The notes beneath the pieces are model-generated. The model was not told where the DNA came from. It made no database searches and was given only the letters and a program-made list of their open reading frames with translations. A stretch of 32,000 nt of DNA, taken from positions 2,322,300 to 2,354,299 of the forward strand of contig NC_014501.1 of NCBI RefSeq assembly GCF_000147335.1. Direction: 5' to 3'. The position numbers and the translations under genes are program-made. This DNA is from Gloeothece verrucosa PCC 7822. Its GTDB lineage: Bacteria; Cyanobacteriota; Cyanobacteriia; Cyanobacteriales; Microcystaceae. Positions 19,580 through 25,015 of this stretch are shown piece after piece. Position 1 is the stretch's first letter, and each line of letters opens with the position of its first letter.

Positions 19580-20260
19580 ATGGCTAGAGGCGATCAAATT
19601 TATGTATATCGAGAGTTGCTCAATTTGCAGGGACTTTATGAGCATCATGGGATTGACTGTGGAGATGATACAGTCATTCATTATCGTAAACCTAGCGAGA
19701 CAATTGAGCGTACTTCTTTAGATATTTTTACGCGCGGGAATCCCACTTATATTAGGCAATATGCTCAGGGGTTTTGTTTTATTCCTGACATAGTCGTGCA
19801 ACGGGCACAAAGCCGCTTAGGAGAACAAAAATATAATCTTTTATTTAATAATTGTGAGCATTTTGCTACCTGGTGTAAAACGGGAATTAATGATAGTAAA
19901 CAAATCCGCGATTTTATCCCAATTATTAGTCAACTGGAAACCTCGAATTTATATGAGCCTTTAAAAGAGGCTTTAGGGCAATCAGATCCCAACAATGCCA
20001 AACGTTTATTAAATAATGCTTTAGGCGATCTTAAAGGGGTTTGGGATGAGCTACAGCCTAAGTATAAATTAAGTTTAAAAGAGGTAGAAACTTGGGATAA
20101 AGTAGCCAAAGAAGCTGTTAAACGAAATCGAGATGACTTGGCAAGAGCGGCTTTAGAACGTAAACTAGGCTATAAGCGGCGAGCAACCGAATTAGAAAAT
20201 CAGTTAAAGCAATTGGCAACTATGACCGAAGATGTTTTAACTAATTTACTGAATGTTTAA
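19580..20260 (+). CDS. LRAT/H-rev107 (NlpC/P60 superfamily, NC-domain) thiol enzyme fused to a PspA/IM30-like helical segment
   Basis: N-terminal half: GDQIYVYRE...YEHHGIDCGDDTVIHY...LLFNNCEHFATWCKTG, with the catalytic His and NCEHF Cys of LRAT-family proteins. C-terminal half: KEVETWDKVAKEAVKRNRDDLARAALERKLGYKRRATELENQLKQL, compared with E. coli PspA [31 protein letters not shown]. Confidence 0.75.
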   Translation: MARGDQIYVYRELLNLQGLYEHHGIDCGDDTVIHYRKPSETIERTSLDIFTRGNPTYIRQYAQGFCFIPDIVVQRAQSRLGEQKYNLLFNNCEHFATWCKTGINDSKQIRDFIPIISQLETSNLYEPLKEALGQSDPNNAKRLLNNALGDLKGVWDELQPKYKLSLKEVETWDKVAKEAVKRNRDDLARAALERKLGYKRRATELENQLKQLATMTEDVLTNLLNV

Positions 20261-20482: not shown

Positions 20483-20511
20483 TAAAACATACTATTAGGG
20501 TAGTATTATTG

Positions 20512-21441
20512 ATGTTCAGTATCTTTTTATTTAGCTTAATTTTTTGCTTTATTTGTTGGTTGATTTATAGCAGTAAAAACTCAGTTAATAACTCTCAAAA
20601 TTTAACAATAAATCAGGGTAAATTATTGGATGGTTCATCTTATCATTTAGCTTGTTTATTAGAAGATGCGCCGCCAAGTTCTTTAAGAGGTCAATTTTAT
20701 CCATTAGCAACACCGTTAATGACCCCTCTAGCTTGTATAGTACCTCGAACTTGGCAGGATTTTTACCGACAAAATTTAGGTCAACCCGGGGTGAATTATT
20801 GGGAATGGCGAGATAAACCTGAATCAAAAAATGTCTGTCAGGAATTAACTTTATTGTTAGACTTGACAGAGCCGAAAGGTTATGCTAGAGATTTTTTAGA
20901 AATTTTAGCCGCAGGGAAAAATCCCCTAGCGAGTTTTTATCAGGAAACGTTAAAAAATAAGGGCAAATTTGATCAACAAGACTTTCAAGTGCAAAAGCAA
21001 ATCTATGTGGCATTTAAACAATGGCATGAATTAGCCCAGCAACAAATCGGACTAGCCGCTTTACAAAGGGTTTATCGGGTGTGTTATGGTGCATCTTGGT
21101 CATTAATAGAGGAAATTTTTGCCGAAAAAACCTTTTTAATTTTTTCACAATATTTAATCGATCAATCTGCCCCTTGGTGGAAAGTTTTAGGGGTGCCACC
21201 TCGGTCGAATTTTTCACAAGTTGAACAAGCTTATAAATCACTGGTTAGAACCTGGCATCCAGACCTTAATCAGCATCCTTTAGCAACAGATGTTACGGCA
21301 AGGATTAATGTTGCTTATGAACAATATCAAGCTTTATATGAAAAGTCTAAACCTGTAACTGTAAGTAATAATAATTTTCAGAAAAATCCCAAGTTATGGG
21401 TAAAAATTCGGGAATGGATTACAACAAATCGAAATAAATAA
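20512..21441 (+). CDS. membrane-anchored J-domain (DnaJ-like) protein
   Basis: N-terminal TM helix: MFSIFLFSLIFCFICWLIY. The C-terminal J domain WWKVLGVPPRSNFSQVEQAYKSLVRTWHPDLNQHPLATDVTARINVAYEQYQAL has the HPD tripeptide. The ~200-aa middle region has no recognisable motif. I prefer the ATG at 20512 to the TTG at 20509. Confidence 0.75.
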   Translation: MFSIFLFSLIFCFICWLIYSSKNSVNNSQNLTINQGKLLDGSSYHLACLLEDAPPSSLRGQFYPLATPLMTPLACIVPRTWQDFYRQNLGQPGVNYWEWRDKPESKNVCQELTLLLDLTEPKGYARDFLEILAAGKNPLASFYQETLKNKGKFDQQDFQVQKQIYVAFKQWHELAQQQIGLAALQRVYRVCYGASWSLIEEIFAEKTFLIFSQYLIDQSAPWWKVLGVPPRSNFSQVEQAYKSLVRTWHPDLNQHPLATDVTARINVAYEQYQALYEKSKPVTVSNNNFQKNPKLWVKIREWITTNRNK

Positions 21442-21649: not shown

Positions 21650-22087
21650 ATGGACCCTTTAAGTATCGCGACGATATCTATCATCTCTGCTGTTGCTACT
21701 AAAGTTTTGGAAAACGCCGGCGAAAAGGTAGGAGAAACCCTCTACGACAAGACGAGTAAATTTCTAGCATCTCTGAAAAAACAATCTCCTGATACAGTAA
21801 CCGCTATAGAAAAAGCCCCCCAACAACCTCTAGATTATGGCACAGCTATATTAGAAATCGAGTCGGCGGCTAAAGCTAATCCTGATGTGGCTAAATCTAT
21901 GGCAGAATTAGCACAAGCGGCTAGAACAGAATCTAATCCTCAATTGCAGCAACAGATACAGGAAATATTAAATAGTTTGAAGTCAGCAAAAAGCTCGCAA
22001 AATACCATTAACTGTGAAAAATTGGCAGATGATCTCAAGAATTTCTTCCAAAATCCTATATTTAATGCTCCAGTCACATTTAATTGA
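21650..22087 (+). CDS. 145-aa helical N-terminal (effector/adaptor-like) domain of the downstream STAND ATPase, ended by an in-frame TGA
   Basis: Same reading frame as 22187-25015, with only the TGA at 22085-22087 between them. It starts with a hydrophobic helix (MDPLSIATISIISAVATKVL) followed by amphipathic helices. No catalytic motif is visible. Confidence 0.5.
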   Translation: MDPLSIATISIISAVATKVLENAGEKVGETLYDKTSKFLASLKKQSPDTVTAIEKAPQQPLDYGTAILEIESAAKANPDVAKSMAELAQAARTESNPQLQQQIQEILNSLKSAKSSQNTINCEKLADDLKNFFQNPIFNAPVTFN

Positions 22088-22186
22088 CTACAGTCGCCCT
22101 TTAGGGAACGGGTAAAGTTAACTCCCTCTAAATCTAAACTTTATAGCGGTTCTGTCCATTTTGTAGGACGAGAAAAAGAACTGCAC

Positions 22187-25015
22187 TTGCTGCATGAAGA
22201 TTTACAGCGAGGTAATTATGTTGCCATAACAGGAATGGGAGGAGTGGGTAAAACCGAGTTAGCTAGTCAATATATTCACCGCTATGGAGAAGCTTATGAG
22301 GGCATTACTTGGTTTAATGATAGACAAAAAGGTCTAGCGGCAGAGGTTTTAGAGTATTTTTCTTTGCAGTTAAATTATGAGATTCCCCAACAGTTAAGGG
22401 GAAAACGGTTAACGCTTTCTGAACAAGTGCGGGAGTGTTGGGGTCAATATGCGGCTTCTGAATTGCCTATATTACTGGTTTTTGATGATGTTACTAATTT
22501 AGATAATCTTCGGGAGGTTGTGCCGAGTGAAAACCGTTTCCGAGTTTTGGTGACGACTCGATTACAATATTTAGACCCGAATTTTATTAGTGAGGTGGGT
22601 TTAGAGGTTCTCTCCCCAGAATATGAACCGGGGAAGGCGTTAGAACTGTTACAAGCTTTGTTAGGTAAGAAAGATAGGCGCATTTATAGGGAACCCGAAG
22701 CGGCGGCAGATATTTGTCGGTGTTTGGAGTATTTGCCTTTGGGGATAATTTTAGTGGGGGGTTATTTGGTACAAGACCCGGATTTATCTTTAGAGATGAT
22801 GCTAGGGCAGTTGCAGGAGAGAAAGTTAGCAGAAAAATCGTTACAGGTAAGGGAAAGTCTTAACCAGTATCAAAGGGGTGTTAGGGCGGCTTTTGCTTTA
22901 ACTTGGGAAGAACTCGATCCTTTGTCTCAGCAAGTGGGAATGTTCCTTAGTTTATTCTCTCCTAAGTTGATTATTTGGGATTTGGTGGTGTGGGTTGCGC
23001 TTAGAAAGTGGCACGAAGAGATCGCAAATGAAGAGGAAACAGAGGTTAATGCTGAACTCGACTCCTCCGGAGAAGTAAAAAAAGAAGATAATTATTTAAG
23101 TTGGTCGAAGTATGAGTTAAACGAGGGGAAAAAGCGACTCTATCAACGAAATTTGCTACAACGGAAAGAAGAGAGAGAAGGATCTTATAAAATTCATGCT
23201 TTGGTGCGGTGGTTTTTACAGGAAAAGTTAGAGGAGTCAGAGGAGATAAAGGGCGTTTTCAGACAAACTTTCGCCATCGCTATGATAAGCGTCGCTAAAA
23301 TTATTCCTGACTCACCCACCTCTAAAGATATTGAAGATGTTAAAGATTTTATTCCCCATATAGAAGCACTAACAGAAAGTTTAATTGAAGAAGCAAAGGA
23401 AAAAAGAGAAGAAAAGAGAATAACTTTAGCATCAGTGCCCGATGAGTCGCTTATCTGGCCTTTTCTGGGAGTAGGAAGGTTTTATCAAGGTCAGGGGTTG
23501 TACTCTTTAGCAGAACCTTGGTATAAACCTTGTCTCGATGTGCTTAAAAGTCACTTTGGAGAAGAACATCCTGATGTAGCAAGCAGTTTGAACAATTTAG
23601 CGGCACTCTACTCTTCAATGGGGCGCTACAGCGAAGCCGAACCTCTGTACCAACAAGCTTTGGAGATCAATGAGCGGCTGTTGGGGACGGAGCATCCTGA
23701 TCTGGCAAGCAGTTTGAACAATTTAGCGGCACTCTACTCTTCAATGGGGCGCTACAGCGAAGCCGAACCTCTGTACCAACAAGCTTTGGAGATCAATGAG
23801 CGGCTGTTGGGGACGGAGCATCCTGATCTGGCAACCAGTTTGAACAATTTAGCGGCACTCTACTCTTCAATGGGGCGCTACAGCGAAGCCGAACCTCTGT
23901 ACCAACAAGCTTTGGAGATCAATGAGCGGCTGTTGGGGACGGAGCATCCTGATCTGGCAACCAGTTTGAACAATTTAGCGGGACTCTACTCTTCAATGGG
24001 GCGCTACAGCGAAGCCGAACCTCTGTACCAACAAGCTTTGGAGATGAGAGAGCGGCTGTTGGGGACGGAGCATCCTTCTGTGGCAACCAGTTTGAACAAT
24101 TTAGCGGGACTCTACTCTTCAATGGGGCGCTACAGCGAAGCCGAACCTCTTTACCAACAAGCTTTGGAGATCAATGAGCGGCTGTTGGGGACGGAGCATC
24201 CTTCTGTGGCAACCAGTTTGAACAATTTAGCAGGACTCTACAAGGCAATGGGGCGCTACAGCGAAGCCGAACCTCTGTACCAACAAGCTTTGGAGATGAG
24301 AGAGCGGCTGTTGGGGACGGAGCATCCTGATCTGGCAAGCAGTTTGAACAATTTAGCAGGACTCTACAAGGCAATGGGGCGCTACAGCGAAGCCGAACCT
24401 CTGTACCAACAAGCTTTGGAGATCAATGAGCGGCTGTTGGGGACGGAGCATCCTGATCTGGCAACCAGTTTGAACAATTTAGCGGGACTCTACGATTCAA
24501 TGGGGCGCTACAGCGAAGCCGAACCTCTGTACCAACAAGCTTTGGAGATCAATGAGCGGCTGTTGGGGACGGAGCATCCTGATCTGGCAACCAGTTTGAA
24601 CAATTTAGCGGGACTCTACGATTCAATGGGGCGCTACAGCGAAGCCGAACCTCTGTACCAACAAGCTTGGGAGATGAGAGAGCGGCTGTTGGGGACGGAG
24701 CATCCTGATGTAGCAAGCAGTTTGAACAATTTAGCAGGACTCTACTCTTCAATGGGGCGCTACAGCGAAGCCGAAACTCTGTACCAACAAGCTTTAGCCA
24801 TACTCGAACCCATCTTAGGGCCTAATCATCCTTCTACCATAACAGTTCGAGAAAATCTTGTCTTGCTGTCACAGCAACGTACTCGCCGCTACCTCTGGAG
24901 TCGTCGCTTAATTAAGCTTGTGGAATTTTTGTTAGCAATTGTGTGTTTACCGTTTTATTTGCTGTGGTTGCTGTTTAAGCAGTTGTTTAGTTTCTTCTTC
25001 CGTCGCTTGCGGTGA
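22187..25015 (+). CDS. NB-ARC (STAND) ATPase with TPR array and C-terminal TM helix (NLR-like); 5' boundary unresolved, frame open from 22088
   Basis: FVGREKEL (upstream of the listed TTG start), Walker A [11 protein letters not shown], Walker B [15 protein letters not shown], GLPL-like [16 protein letters not shown]. Then 10 full and 2 degenerate 42-aa TPR_12-type units ([42 protein letters not shown]). Terminal hydrophobic helix: [20 protein letters not shown]. Confidence 0.85.
   Translation: [942 protein letters not shown]
23564..24823 (+). repeat. 126-bp x10 near-identical tandem repeat (coding, TPR units)
   Basis: Unit starts (GAxCATCCT) fall at 23564, 23690, 23816, 23942, 24068, 24194, 24320, 24446, 24572 and 24698, an exact 126-bp period. 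A degenerate capping unit starts at 24824. Confidence 0.95.

Follow-up and report, generated by a model that had tools for sequence, protein, structure and literature searches.

Here we analysed a 32,000-nucleotide stretch of DNA from Gloeothece verrucosa PCC 7822 (hereafter the window), in which positions 21650-25015 of the plus strand comprise 1122 codons with a single internal stop, the TGA at 22085-22087. A 145-codon ORF (21650-22087) and a 975-codon open frame (22088-25015) lie in a common frame with the TGA alone between them, and translation bore out the preliminary description in this respect. With open runs averaging 16 codons at 41% GC, 975 open codons would arise by chance with a probability of about 1e-27. 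The following features were delineated at the locus.

21650..22084, plus strand: short product, a predicted 145-aa Bell-type helical effector protein (homologues and AF2 model).
21650..21709, plus strand: N-terminal hydrophobic helix MDPLSIATISIISAVATKVL, with an acidic residue at position 2 ('MEPIS'-type motif).
22016..22084, plus strand: C-terminal motif EKLADDLKNFFQNPIFNAPVTFN, at the position of a BASS-type amyloid signalling motif.
22085..22087, plus strand: UGA stop codon, proposed readthrough site, invariant in the junction comparison.
22085..22129, plus strand: nucleotide-conserved junction cassette (per-position profile).
22088..22095, plus strand: 8-nt spacer CUACAGUC in UGA-CUA context (junction profile).
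22096..22113, plus strand: hairpin, with 5' arm GCCCU (22096-22100), loop (22101-22108) and 3' arm CGGGU (22109-22113).
22088..22186, plus strand: start-less 33-codon stretch LQSPFRERVKLTPSKSKLYSGSVHFVGREKELH, including the FVGRE strand that precedes the P-loop.
22187..22840, plus strand: NB-ARC nucleotide-binding domain (Pfam PF00931, E 1.4e-14, residues 34-251 of the post-stop read).
22232-22255, plus strand: P-loop GMGGVGKT (residues 49-56 of the 975-aa read).
23468..24847, plus strand: TPR sensor array (Pfam TPR_12 and TPR_10, 11 stretches each).
23567-24795: tandem repeat inside the TPR array, a 126-bp unit present 9.8 times at 95% identity (score 2150 in Tandem Repeats Finder).
24908..25000, plus strand: C-terminal hydrophobic, tail-anchor-like segment (Kyte-Doolittle 19-residue maximum 2.42).

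The TGA and the surrounding 300 nt were identical in two independent Gloeothece verrucosa Logan assemblies (SRR9434948 and SRR004562), which answers the question of a read-level check raised in the preliminary description and rules out an assembly error. The downstream frame encodes an NB-ARC STAND NTPase, as judged by the PF00931 match and the Walker A P-loop GMGGVGKT followed by the TPR array. Its hydrophobic tail is homologous to the C-terminal segment, ILLAILILPFYLLWRLAKKL, of L004, L008, L018, L022, L030, L038 and L049, and its conservation extends to at least 8 homologues (Gloeothece, Nostoc, Xenococcaceae). The domain order proposed earlier from this single sequence was thus upheld, but its assignment to the Avs type was not: PADLOC gave no Avs/AVAST match, only a generic TPR model and sub-threshold PDC-S73 and mad8, and the system is placed with the Bell/BASS NLR pairs. 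The 33 post-stop codons hold no ATG or GTG, as noted earlier, and no TTG either, the first such codon being the TTG at 22187. The syntenic G. citriformis orthologue of this stretch reads LQSPGRERAKLTPPKSIPYRGSVHFVGREKELH. Post-stop codons 11-33, FVGRE included, are conserved at the protein level (pN/pS 0.50 over codons 11-33 and 0.35 for FVGRE), indels between the stop and FVGR are multiples of three, and the peptide KQLTPTKSIPYRGSVHFVGRE from this stretch also lies inside the ATG-initiated NLRs of the sister loci described below as class B.

In Gloeothece verrucosa the 145-aa protein carries the annotation 'hypothetical protein', and it has no family match in Pfam, NCBIfam or PADLOC. Its homologues form 83 protein clusters, every one of stand-alone proteins 86-149 aa long, and among the 395 matches to its profile in 1.84 billion representatives, the best 150 are nearly all 70-170 aa long. 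The AF2 model of the N-terminal ORF is an all-helical bundle of 6-8 helices (pLDDT 72.5, pTM 0.65). Foldseek of this domain against the PDB returned nothing significant, HeLo, Bab and CC structures included (best match Rx-CC 4m70, E 0.73, TM 0.2, not significant), and a profile search against PDB sequences revealed no relative; Bell topologies are reported as variable in the literature. The family consensus of the N-terminal helix is MEPLTTAAIAIGSVVATKALEK in alignment A1, also given as MEPLTTAAIAIGSVVATK. The MEPIS region of Bell/BASS pairs, namely a hydrophobic N-terminal helix with an acidic residue at position 2-3, is present in the window, and this hydrophobic-helix signature is known from Bell, HeLo, Hell, MLKL and CC domains (Dyrka 2020; Ibarlosa 2024). 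The earlier reading of a HeLo/Bell-type helical N-domain with a hydrophobic leading helix holds as a reading of architecture. At the other end, the C-terminal motif has the family consensus QKLADEIKNVFQGNTFNAPVTFN and the proteins all end at one aligned column; we take it to be a putative amyloid-type (BASS-like) motif. Members of this Bell family are also found fused directly in frame to dynamin-like GTPases, without BASS tail or linker.

Comparison of the junction across relatives revealed TGA in 82 of 82 distinct junctions from at least five cyanobacterial orders (Nostocales, Chroococcales, Pleurocapsales, Oscillatoriales, Leptolyngbyales), counts that are not independent events as the sequences are related. 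TGA was found in all 45 genome loci with an in-frame downstream ORF (113-1230 codons, median 728), whereas family loci without such an ORF ended in TAA (29), TGA (6) or TAG (2) (Fisher p 6e-17). It was likewise present in 41 of 41 metagenome junctions, which had been retrieved with a pattern leaving the stop codon unspecified. Synonymous sites immediately 5' of the stop are near saturation (pS 0.67). On the question of whether orthologues are contiguous or split, neither the 83 clusters nor the best 150 of the 395 profile matches contained a sense-codon form of the junction. An unvarying TGA in 82/82 junctions from several orders led us to reject recent inactivation, one of the three explanations offered in the preliminary description. 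A Brasilonema locus (L044) carries a second stop two codons past the TGA. No conserved start codon was found between stop and P-loop among the 45 loci; the first in-frame ATG/GTG/TTG lies anywhere from codon 1 to 115 and is often a Met within the P-loop.

The stop is embedded in a cassette with the consensus UGA CUR NAG UCG YCY GNN SGG GAA CGG RCA AAG UUA ANU CCC, where +4 is C in 72 of 82 junctions and +5 is U in 75 of 82. The NAG and YCG positions of the spacer are conserved and the residues they encode vary (L/P, Q/K/E, S/P). Over post-stop codons 1-10, pS was 0.18 and pN/pS 1.18, as compared to a pS of 0.67 just 5' of the stop. Because third codon positions are invariant while residues vary, and pN/pS is 1.18 with a pS of 0.18, selection on the first post-stop codons is, on these substitution patterns, acting on nucleotides and not on amino acids. 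The 5-bp stem was predicted unprompted by RNAalifold; 98.5% of its cells are paired across the 82 sequences, with slid controls pairing at 11-42%. Compensatory changes occur in three of the five stem pairs (UA 49, CG 29; CG 58, UG 18, UA 5; GC 73, CG 3, UG 3), the covariation score was reached by none of 500 shuffles, and stem pair 25-41 has the top mutual information among all column pairs. The hairpin is retained in L053 and L069 although the loop is shorter. A candidate pseudoknot was just 80% paired and had no mutual-information support. The window's own copy ranks among the weakest, having one G.U and three G-C pairs and a U x C mismatch where the loop closes, and folded alone it is not significant (z 0.91). 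As a counterpoint to readthrough, five base pairs make for a small stimulator and the stem in the window is weak.

The cassette had no match in Rfam, and our covariance model R1 matches such junctions only, with 0 of 13 class B loci recovered. It stands behind several Bell subfamilies, some without BLAST similarity to one another, and the modules 3' of it include NB-ARC-TPR, NB-ARC-APAF1_C, NACHT-HEAT, nSTAND3/NACHT, TPR-only and TM-PsbP_2. Since it joins differing Bell subfamilies to differing sensor modules, the junction is conserved more than either flank. Both the hairpin and the amyloid-type C-terminal motif lay beyond the single-sequence view of the earlier work.

In class B loci the short protein ends in TAA or TAG, the NLR has its own ATG and the hairpin is absent. 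The C-terminal segment of the short protein matches the N-terminus of the neighbouring NLR in 13 such relatives (z 3.5-12 by local alignment), so that these NLRs carry a copy of the small protein's motif; in the UGA-junction (class A) loci, the window and nine others, no such copy was found on the NLR side (z -1.0 to 1.5). By homology, the class B relatives are canonical, published Bell/BASS amyloid-signalling pairs, and the comparison reads as showing a short protein that is functional on its own. Orthologous ATPases with their own start codon and RBS, which the preliminary description had named as evidence against a single gene, were found in class B and not in class A. Its suggestion of a natural effector/sensor split stands as regards a free effector; a plain two-gene split is unsupported because the sensor ORF has neither a conserved start nor an NLR-side motif.

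The junctions keep a specific leaky stop, an open in-phase frame under selection and a covarying 3' structure at about 8 nt, features that agree with known readthrough signals, in which UGA is the leakiest stop, +4 is C, the context is UGA-CUA and, in MuLV, an 8-nt spacer precedes a structure (PMC7026636). On this comparative evidence we consider it probable that the locus is one expression unit giving two proteins via programmed UGA readthrough, and the sensor is probably made only in this way. Regulated TGA readthrough was among the explanations first proposed, and the comparative data favour it together with a real free effector.

If the UGA always terminated, the locus would be two separate cistrons, the NLR being started by termination-reinitiation or at a non-canonical start, and the hairpin and its G-rich, Shine-Dalgarno-like loop (GGGGAA/CGGGAA) would hold the ribosome or couple the ORFs. 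As a rule, a Bell gene and its NLR gene are distinct cistrons with tight coupling (Dyrka 2020), and a GTG does follow the stop immediately and in frame in two loci (L047 and L081). We nevertheless regard this as unlikely, since ATG, GTG and TTG are unconserved throughout the stop-to-P-loop interval and the first post-stop codon varies (CUA, CUG, CUC, CUU, CCA, CCG, GUG, GUA, AUA, and AUC and AAG in metagenome junctions). The first canonical start would moreover lose FVGRE, in many loci along with part of the P-loop. Reinitiation needs neither the same frame, nor an ORF unbroken from the stop, nor UGA, yet all three hold in 82/82 junctions.

Far less credible still is a dedicated decoding of the UGA, by selenocysteine with the hairpin as SECIS or by an opal-suppressor tRNA, with the long protein as main or only product. 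The geometry is SECIS-like, with a hairpin about 11 nt past the UGA and coding sequence constrained by RNA structure, but Rfam returned no SECIS match. Selenoprotein families are usually recognised by homologues that have Cys in place of the UGA, and none was present among the 83 clusters and the top 150 of the 395 profile matches. The UGA site is an interdomain linker and not a redox centre, ARAGORN, run on the window and on 1.1 Mb of related loci, detected neither a tRNA-Sec nor a suppressor tRNA, and the TAA/TAG relatives argue for a short protein that works alone. The Sec trait was not detected in Cyanobacteria (PMC1794560). We give equally little credence to a downstream ORF that is unexpressed from the junction, the cassette being a DNA recombination or gene-conversion joint that swaps sensors behind Bell genes, or the ORF a decaying pseudogene. 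A joint of this kind would fit with the recurrence of one cassette, about 45 nt long, between mutually unrelated N-domains and mutually unrelated sensor modules, with the loci truncated past the junction (L011, L014, L021, L062 and the second copy of L089) and with the 95% identical TPR repeats, which suggest active recombination. However, compensatory changes that preserve pairing point to a folded single strand, and not sequence identity alone, as the object of selection, and an unexpressed sensor would decay, whereas the downstream ORFs are open (median 728 codons) with pN/pS below 1. Persistence of the TGA across several orders excludes decay as a general state.

Under programmed readthrough, most ribosomes would terminate at the UGA (22085-22087) and release the 145-aa Bell-type protein, with its membrane-targeting N-terminal helix, helical bundle and amyloid-type (BASS-like) C-terminal motif. 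A minority would decode the UGA, most likely with a near-cognate tRNA such as tRNA-Trp, and continue in frame to a 1121-residue effector-sensor fusion with NB-ARC, TPR array and hydrophobic tail. Decoding would be aided by the weak UGA-C context and by the hairpin 8 nt downstream, which would sit at the mRNA entrance while the UGA occupies the A site. An abundant Bell-type effector would thus face a rare effector-NLR fusion. Readthrough would replace the sensor's own amyloid motif and, because it would supply that motif, the effector-side and sensor-side copies would always be identical. Once the TPR sensor is triggered, NB-ARC may oligomerise and the clustered Bell-BASS heads nucleate the amyloid fold; these heads would recruit free short protein, whose helix 1 would insert into the membrane and kill the cell, as abortive infection or regulated cell death.

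The Bell/BASS NLR pairs of filamentous bacteria (Dyrka 2020, bioRxiv 10.1101/2020.01.06.895854) likewise have a small protein that begins with a hydrophobic helix acidic at position 2, continues as a helical bundle of about 100 aa and ends in a short motif rich in N/Q/G/T; in Cyanobacteria it immediately precedes, and is collinear with, an NLR made of NB-ARC/NACHT plus TPR/WD. Unlike these pairs, the window and 81 further junctions have an NLR without start codon or motif copy, linked by UGA and hairpin; the Bell-NLR ORFs of that study have 4-bp overlaps or short gaps, and stop codons or readthrough are unmentioned (Dyrka 2020, bioRxiv 10.1101/2020.01.06.895854). We found no description of readthrough at such junctions in the literature searched. 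The 'MEPIS' N-terminal motif is also common to the window and the Bab/Agp antiphage abortive infection system of E. coli (Ibarlosa 2024, bioRxiv 10.1101/2024.11.07.622273). In Bab/Agp and fungal HET-S/NWD2, the amyloid motif of a sensor templates the matching motif on a pore-forming Bell/HeLo effector, as we propose here. Those systems consist of two independently translated proteins, whereas at the present locus the sensor would owe its motif to the effector by way of readthrough and would also bear a full Bell domain. NLRs of the all-in-one kind, bearing an N-terminal Bell/CC/HeLo-type domain (for example Avs2/Avast2 with the MEPIS motif, and plant ZAR1), combine executioner, NTPase and repeats as the proposed long product would, but they are continuous ORFs, unlike the present locus.

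To our knowledge, programmed stop-codon readthrough is almost unknown among bacterial chromosomal genes, and its stimulation by structure is established in viruses and in eukaryotes, though not where bacterial ribosomes translate a chromosomal gene. Viral readthrough (MuLV gag-pol; alphavirus and coltivirus UGA-C with a 3' stem-loop) has the leaky stop, +4 C and downstream structure seen here, with CUN at +4 to +6 and an 8-nt spacer, and gives two products with a common N-terminus at a set ratio, as may the present locus. It differs from our case, a chromosomal gene with a short 5-bp hairpin in a bacterial host with RF2 and the 70S ribosome. On bacterial ribosomes, UGA readthrough in the phage Qbeta coat/A1 gene gives a needed minor C-terminally extended protein beside a major short one (PMC7026636, Table 1). 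Qbeta coat/A1 is a phage gene, whereas the present family is cellular and has a covarying hairpin. We know of no conserved downstream structure described for Qbeta coat/A1.

In short, the locus would be a known type of system with a new expression logic. We lean towards the view that a portable cyanobacterial recoding cassette of about 45 nt drives readthrough on bacterial ribosomes, thereby fusing an executioner and its amyloid motif to many sensors. If so, an invariant UGA, a CUN context, an 8-nt spacer and a covarying hairpin would serve NB-ARC, NACHT and TM-PsbP-like sensors alike, and the executioner-sensor fusion would be made at a low set ratio. The effector and sensor sides of an innate-immunity switch would then share a single copy of the amyloid motif, an arrangement convergent with retroviral gag-pol expression.

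The ORF at 21650-22087 (ATG start, 145 aa) is in phase with an open frame at 22088-25015, and the TGA at 22085-22087 is the sole stop between them. The preliminary description of two ORFs in one frame split by a single TGA was confirmed. Two independent assemblies of public reads carried the identical junction, which ruled out sequencing error as the origin of the TGA. A hypothetical protein of Gloeothece verrucosa matches the 145-aa product at 100% identity. ATG, GTG and TTG are all absent from the 33 codons following the TGA, and the TTG selected by the gene caller at 22187 leaves only 15 residues ahead of the P-loop GMGGVGKT. The chance of a 975-codon open run at the GC content of the window (41%) was calculated to be about 1e-27. 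In the post-stop frame, an NB-ARC STAND NTPase (PF00931, E 1.4e-14) precedes 11 TPR_12/TPR_10 units. Features within and next to the locus are as follows.

19580-20260: LRAT (NlpC/P60-like)-PspA/IM30-like coiled coil fusion, upstream neighbour
20509-21441: membrane protein with C-terminal DnaJ, upstream neighbour
23567-24795: tandem repeat inside the TPR region, 9.8 copies of a 126-bp (42-aa) unit, 95% identity

Such near-identical repeats typically occur in NLR sensor arrays that diversify fast, and they leave the region prone to assembly collapse. The strongly hydrophobic C-terminal tail of the sensor is conserved in at least 8 homologues from three families. The suggestion that this NLR is of Avs type was not borne out, as PADLOC gave no Avs/AVAST match. 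Other flanking genes encode, on the upstream side, an Fe/Mn superoxide dismutase whose leader is Tat-like and, on the downstream side, an ArsP_1 permease and a DHH protein; G. citriformis has the same downstream synteny. These other genes look like housekeeping genes and not like a defence island.

The 145-aa ORF matched no family in Pfam, NCBIfam or PADLOC beyond sub-threshold noise, and neither Foldseek against PDB nor a profile search of PDB sequences returned anything significant for its fold. AlphaFold2 predicted a helical bundle (pLDDT 72.5). The N-terminus in the window, MDPLSIATISIIS, and the family consensus, MEPLTTAAIAIGS, show a first helix that is hydrophobic and has its acidic residue at position 2, the combination that defines the 'MEPIS' region of Bell/HeLo/Hell domains (Dyrka et al. 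2020; Ibarlosa et al. 2024). Homologous protein clusters from many cyanobacteria were all stand-alone (83/83; 86-149 aa), and a profile search of 1.84 billion representatives gave 395 hits, of which nearly all of the best 150 were 70-170 aa long. When aligned, the small proteins end at one common column just after a conserved tail, QKLADEIKNVFQGNTFNAPVTFN, which indicates that the stop of the small ORF is ancestral. Recent inactivation of a one-gene suicide or defence locus, one of the options raised earlier, was therefore rejected: the small stand-alone proteins are conserved and the TGA is kept in 82 distinct junctions. Since the sequences are related, neither this nor our other counts represent independent events. 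In a relative from Okeania (L058, 1595-2722), low-complexity sequence that is acidic and rich in repeats extends the Bell N-domain to 375 aa; this locus carries neither the junction cassette nor an in-frame NLR.

We fetched and scanned 80 of 202 related genome loci, which fell into two classes. Class A comprises 45 non-redundant loci, that of the window and the syntenic orthologue in G. citriformis among them, in which an in-frame open frame of 113-1230 codons (median 728) follows the stop directly. All 45 have TGA. In the 37 sister loci of class B the stop is TAA (29), TGA (6) or TAG (2), with no more than 26 open codons after it; the difference in stop usage is highly significant (Fisher p = 6e-17). 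The downstream NLR of class B has its own ATG and an N-terminal copy of the C-terminal motif of the effector (z 3.5-12). In one example the effector motif KLAEKIGQVVMPGGKGKIENQSF is matched by KFAEKIGQVVMPGGQAYIGTQII of the NLR, which then runs on ...KQLTPTKSIPYRGSVHFVGRE. Class B loci are textbook Bell/BASS pairs, i.e. a small helical effector with an amyloid-type C-terminal motif paired with an NLR sensor, as defined by Dyrka et al. 2020. NLRs of class A share the peptide KLTPTKSIPYRGSVHFVGRE with those of class B, but possess neither a start codon nor a copy of the motif (z about 0). Their first in-frame ATG, GTG or TTG occurs anywhere from codon 1 to codon 115 past the TGA, and is often a Met inside the P-loop. 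No protein with N-domain, tail and LQSSERERTK linker in one ORF, as expected of a sense-codon junction, was found among the 83 clusters or the best 150 of the 395 profile hits. Six long N-domain proteins (P0110, P0133, P0139, P0156, P0200 and P0204) were considered as readthrough-fixed forms and rejected, being of other architectures without BASS tail or linker. Three of them (P0139, P0200 and P0204; 823-901 aa) join a Bell-like N-domain in a continuous ORF to a dynamin-like GTPase (Dynamin_N, MMR_HSR1), with no BASS tail.

Nucleotide conservation in the locus is highest over the 45 nt that follow the TGA (UGA CUR NAG UCG YCY GNN SGG GAA CGG RCA AAG UUA ANU CCC). Within this cassette the third codon positions show no variation, unlike the residues that are encoded (L/P, Q/K/E, S/P, G/R). 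The first 10 codons past the stop had a pS of 0.18 and a pN/pS of 1.18, as against a pS of 0.67 just upstream; pN/pS was 0.50 for codons 11-33 and 0.35 for FVGRE. The saturated synonymous sites beside the junction argue against simple inheritance. RNAalifold predicted a 5-bp stem (+11..+15 / +24..+28) starting 8 nt past the stop codon. It is 98.5% paired in the 82 junctions, with compensatory changes in 3/5 pairs (UA49/CG29/UG3; CG58/UG18/UA5; GC73/CG3/UG3). None of 500 shuffles reached the observed covariation score, slid controls were 11-42% paired, and no other column pair had as high a mutual information as stem pair 25-41. A pseudoknot between the loop GGGA and a downstream UCCC was not supported, with only 80% pairing, two covarying cells and no backing from mutual information. 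No Rfam family matches the cassette. The hairpin of the window is among the weakest (one G.U and three G-C pairs, with a U x C mismatch; z 0.91 when folded alone); in the orthologue from G. citriformis the stem, GCCCG/CGGGC, is perfect.

A metagenome collection was scanned with a pattern for the hairpin only, leaving the stop unspecified. The scan recovered 41 non-redundant true junctions, all with TGA exactly 9 nt upstream and the CUNNAG context. Complete upstream ORFs almost always encode 125-187 aa starting MEP(L/V)T... or a close variant, and several of these N-domains are not BLAST-similar to that of the window. The exception, L121 (about 700-1610), has an upstream ORF of ~300 aa with a different N-terminus (MFGKNRRSHSQSKEDNMLGLL...), not a ~145-aa Bell protein, so that N-terminal modules of other kinds may also be served by the cassette; in a few contigs the upstream part is interrupted or cut at the contig end. 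The junctions are followed by in-frame ORFs hundreds of codons long, save where the contig ends or a stop comes early (L110, L123). The remaining pattern matches were unrelated GC-rich sequences unrecognised by a covariance model; this model matches junctions only, with 0 matches in 13 class B loci. A TGG at L126 was considered as a possible sense-codon variant and dismissed, since it lacks the CUNNAG context, a downstream ORF and a covariance-model match, and is a chance match. At least 8 unrelated metagenome contigs (L095, L101, L102, L108, L132, L138, L139, L141) share a recurring GC-rich sequence, AGCAG...CG.CCC AGCGCG CCGCCCGGGTGGGAACGGGCAAAG, with no TGA, Bell ORF or covariance-model match; it is some other conserved element.

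Modules found behind the cassette are NB-ARC-TPR, NB-ARC-APAF1_C, NACHT-HEAT-NCC-H, nSTAND3/NACHT, TPR-only and TM-PsbP_2, and the junction is therefore more conserved than either domain it joins. In the TM-PsbP_2 loci of Tolypothrix, Aulosira and Nostoc (L003 6001-7098; also L012, L015, L019, L020, L025) what comes in frame behind the cassette is a TM helix and a PsbP_2-like domain of ~220 codons, with no NLR, and the annotated GTG start falls within the TM helix. L089 (4013, 9657), L100 (6318, 10396) and L140 (5195, 8122) each hold a pair of Bell-UGA-hairpin-sensor units separated by a few kb of one contig; thus, tandem arrays of such systems can occur. Several loci are truncated past the junction. 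A Brasilonema MAG (L044 5421-5432, same contig as L123) reads TGA CTG TAG TCG, with a second in-frame stop two codons on and the remaining cassette and NLR otherwise intact; the extra stop reflects either a knockout of very recent date or an error.

Independent initiation or reinitiation of the NLR after the stop appears unlikely, as no start codon is conserved and reinitiation needs neither the same frame, nor an unbroken ORF from the stop, nor UGA specifically. A start codon overlapping the stop (NTGA) was rejected, the TTG at 22084 of the window being out of frame and meeting a stop after 6 codons; no intrinsic terminator or promoter was found at the junction. Bypassing of the gene-60 type was also rejected, since the codon before the stop is variable and no take-off/landing codon pair co-varies with it. 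Insertion of selenocysteine at the UGA is unlikely: the site is a linker with no Cys homologues, no SECIS match was obtained in Rfam, and no Sec trait was detected in Cyanobacteria (PMC1794560). ARAGORN found no tRNA-Sec or suppressor tRNA near the loci, save one spurious call, a 'tRNA-???' with a 4-base anticodon (cccg) right on the cassette of L097 (7320-7410), probably a false positive from the hairpin. A recent pseudogene does not agree with the retention of TGA, and a purely DNA-level recombination joint or decay, which would leave the compensatory base changes and long intact ORFs unexplained, is very improbable.

An invariant UGA, +4 C, CUN, an 8-nt spacer, a covarying hairpin and a startless open extension together correspond to the standard comparative signature of programmed stop-codon readthrough. 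A structure 8 nt past the A-site codon is located where the mRNA enters the ribosome. Of the three stops UGA is the leakiest, a C at +4 makes termination weaker and the UGA-CUA context favours readthrough; MuLV likewise combines an 8-nt spacer with a structure (PMC7026636). The locus of the window would accordingly give two products, an abundant Bell-BASS effector of 145 aa and, by readthrough of UGA, a rare Bell-BASS-NB-ARC-TPR fusion of 1121 residues. In canonical pairs the NLR's own motif copy templates the effector upon NLR oligomerisation, as demonstrated for HET-S/NWD2 and Bab/Agp (Ibarlosa et al. 2024). In class A, readthrough would supply the sensor-side copy, which would hence always be identical to that of the effector, and the sensor-to-effector ratio would be fixed during translation. 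Such a model would explain why UGA never becomes UAA (the sensor would be lost) or a sense codon (the free effector pool would be lost), and why class A NLRs have neither a start codon nor a motif of their own. For these loci we infer readthrough and its efficiency, the residue inserted, amyloid templating, attack on the membrane and a role in defence.

Viruses and eukaryotes classically employ programmed stop-codon readthrough that has its own RNA signal, and bacterial readthrough is known chiefly from phage Qbeta and a few anecdotal cases. The Bell/BASS-NLR type of system is already known. Our search of the literature on readthrough with Bell, BASS, NLR, Nostoc or antiphage systems found no earlier description of the junction, and both Bell papers leave stop codons and readthrough unmentioned (Dyrka et al. 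2020; Ibarlosa et al. 2024). As a candidate readthrough signal of bacterial chromosomal genes, the junction would be conserved, structured and portable. If so, it would offer a natural bacterial model for mRNA structure biasing termination versus decoding on 70S ribosomes, and the cassette is short enough for direct testing and for reuse as a protein-ratio tool. Many cyanobacterial annotations of a 'hypothetical protein' followed by a truncated TPR protein would then be single recoded units. The locus would also represent a new NLR-executioner wiring, in which one motif sequence serves sensor and effector so that the two do not drift apart, and in which the translation-set ratio could react to RF2 activity or translation stress in infection.
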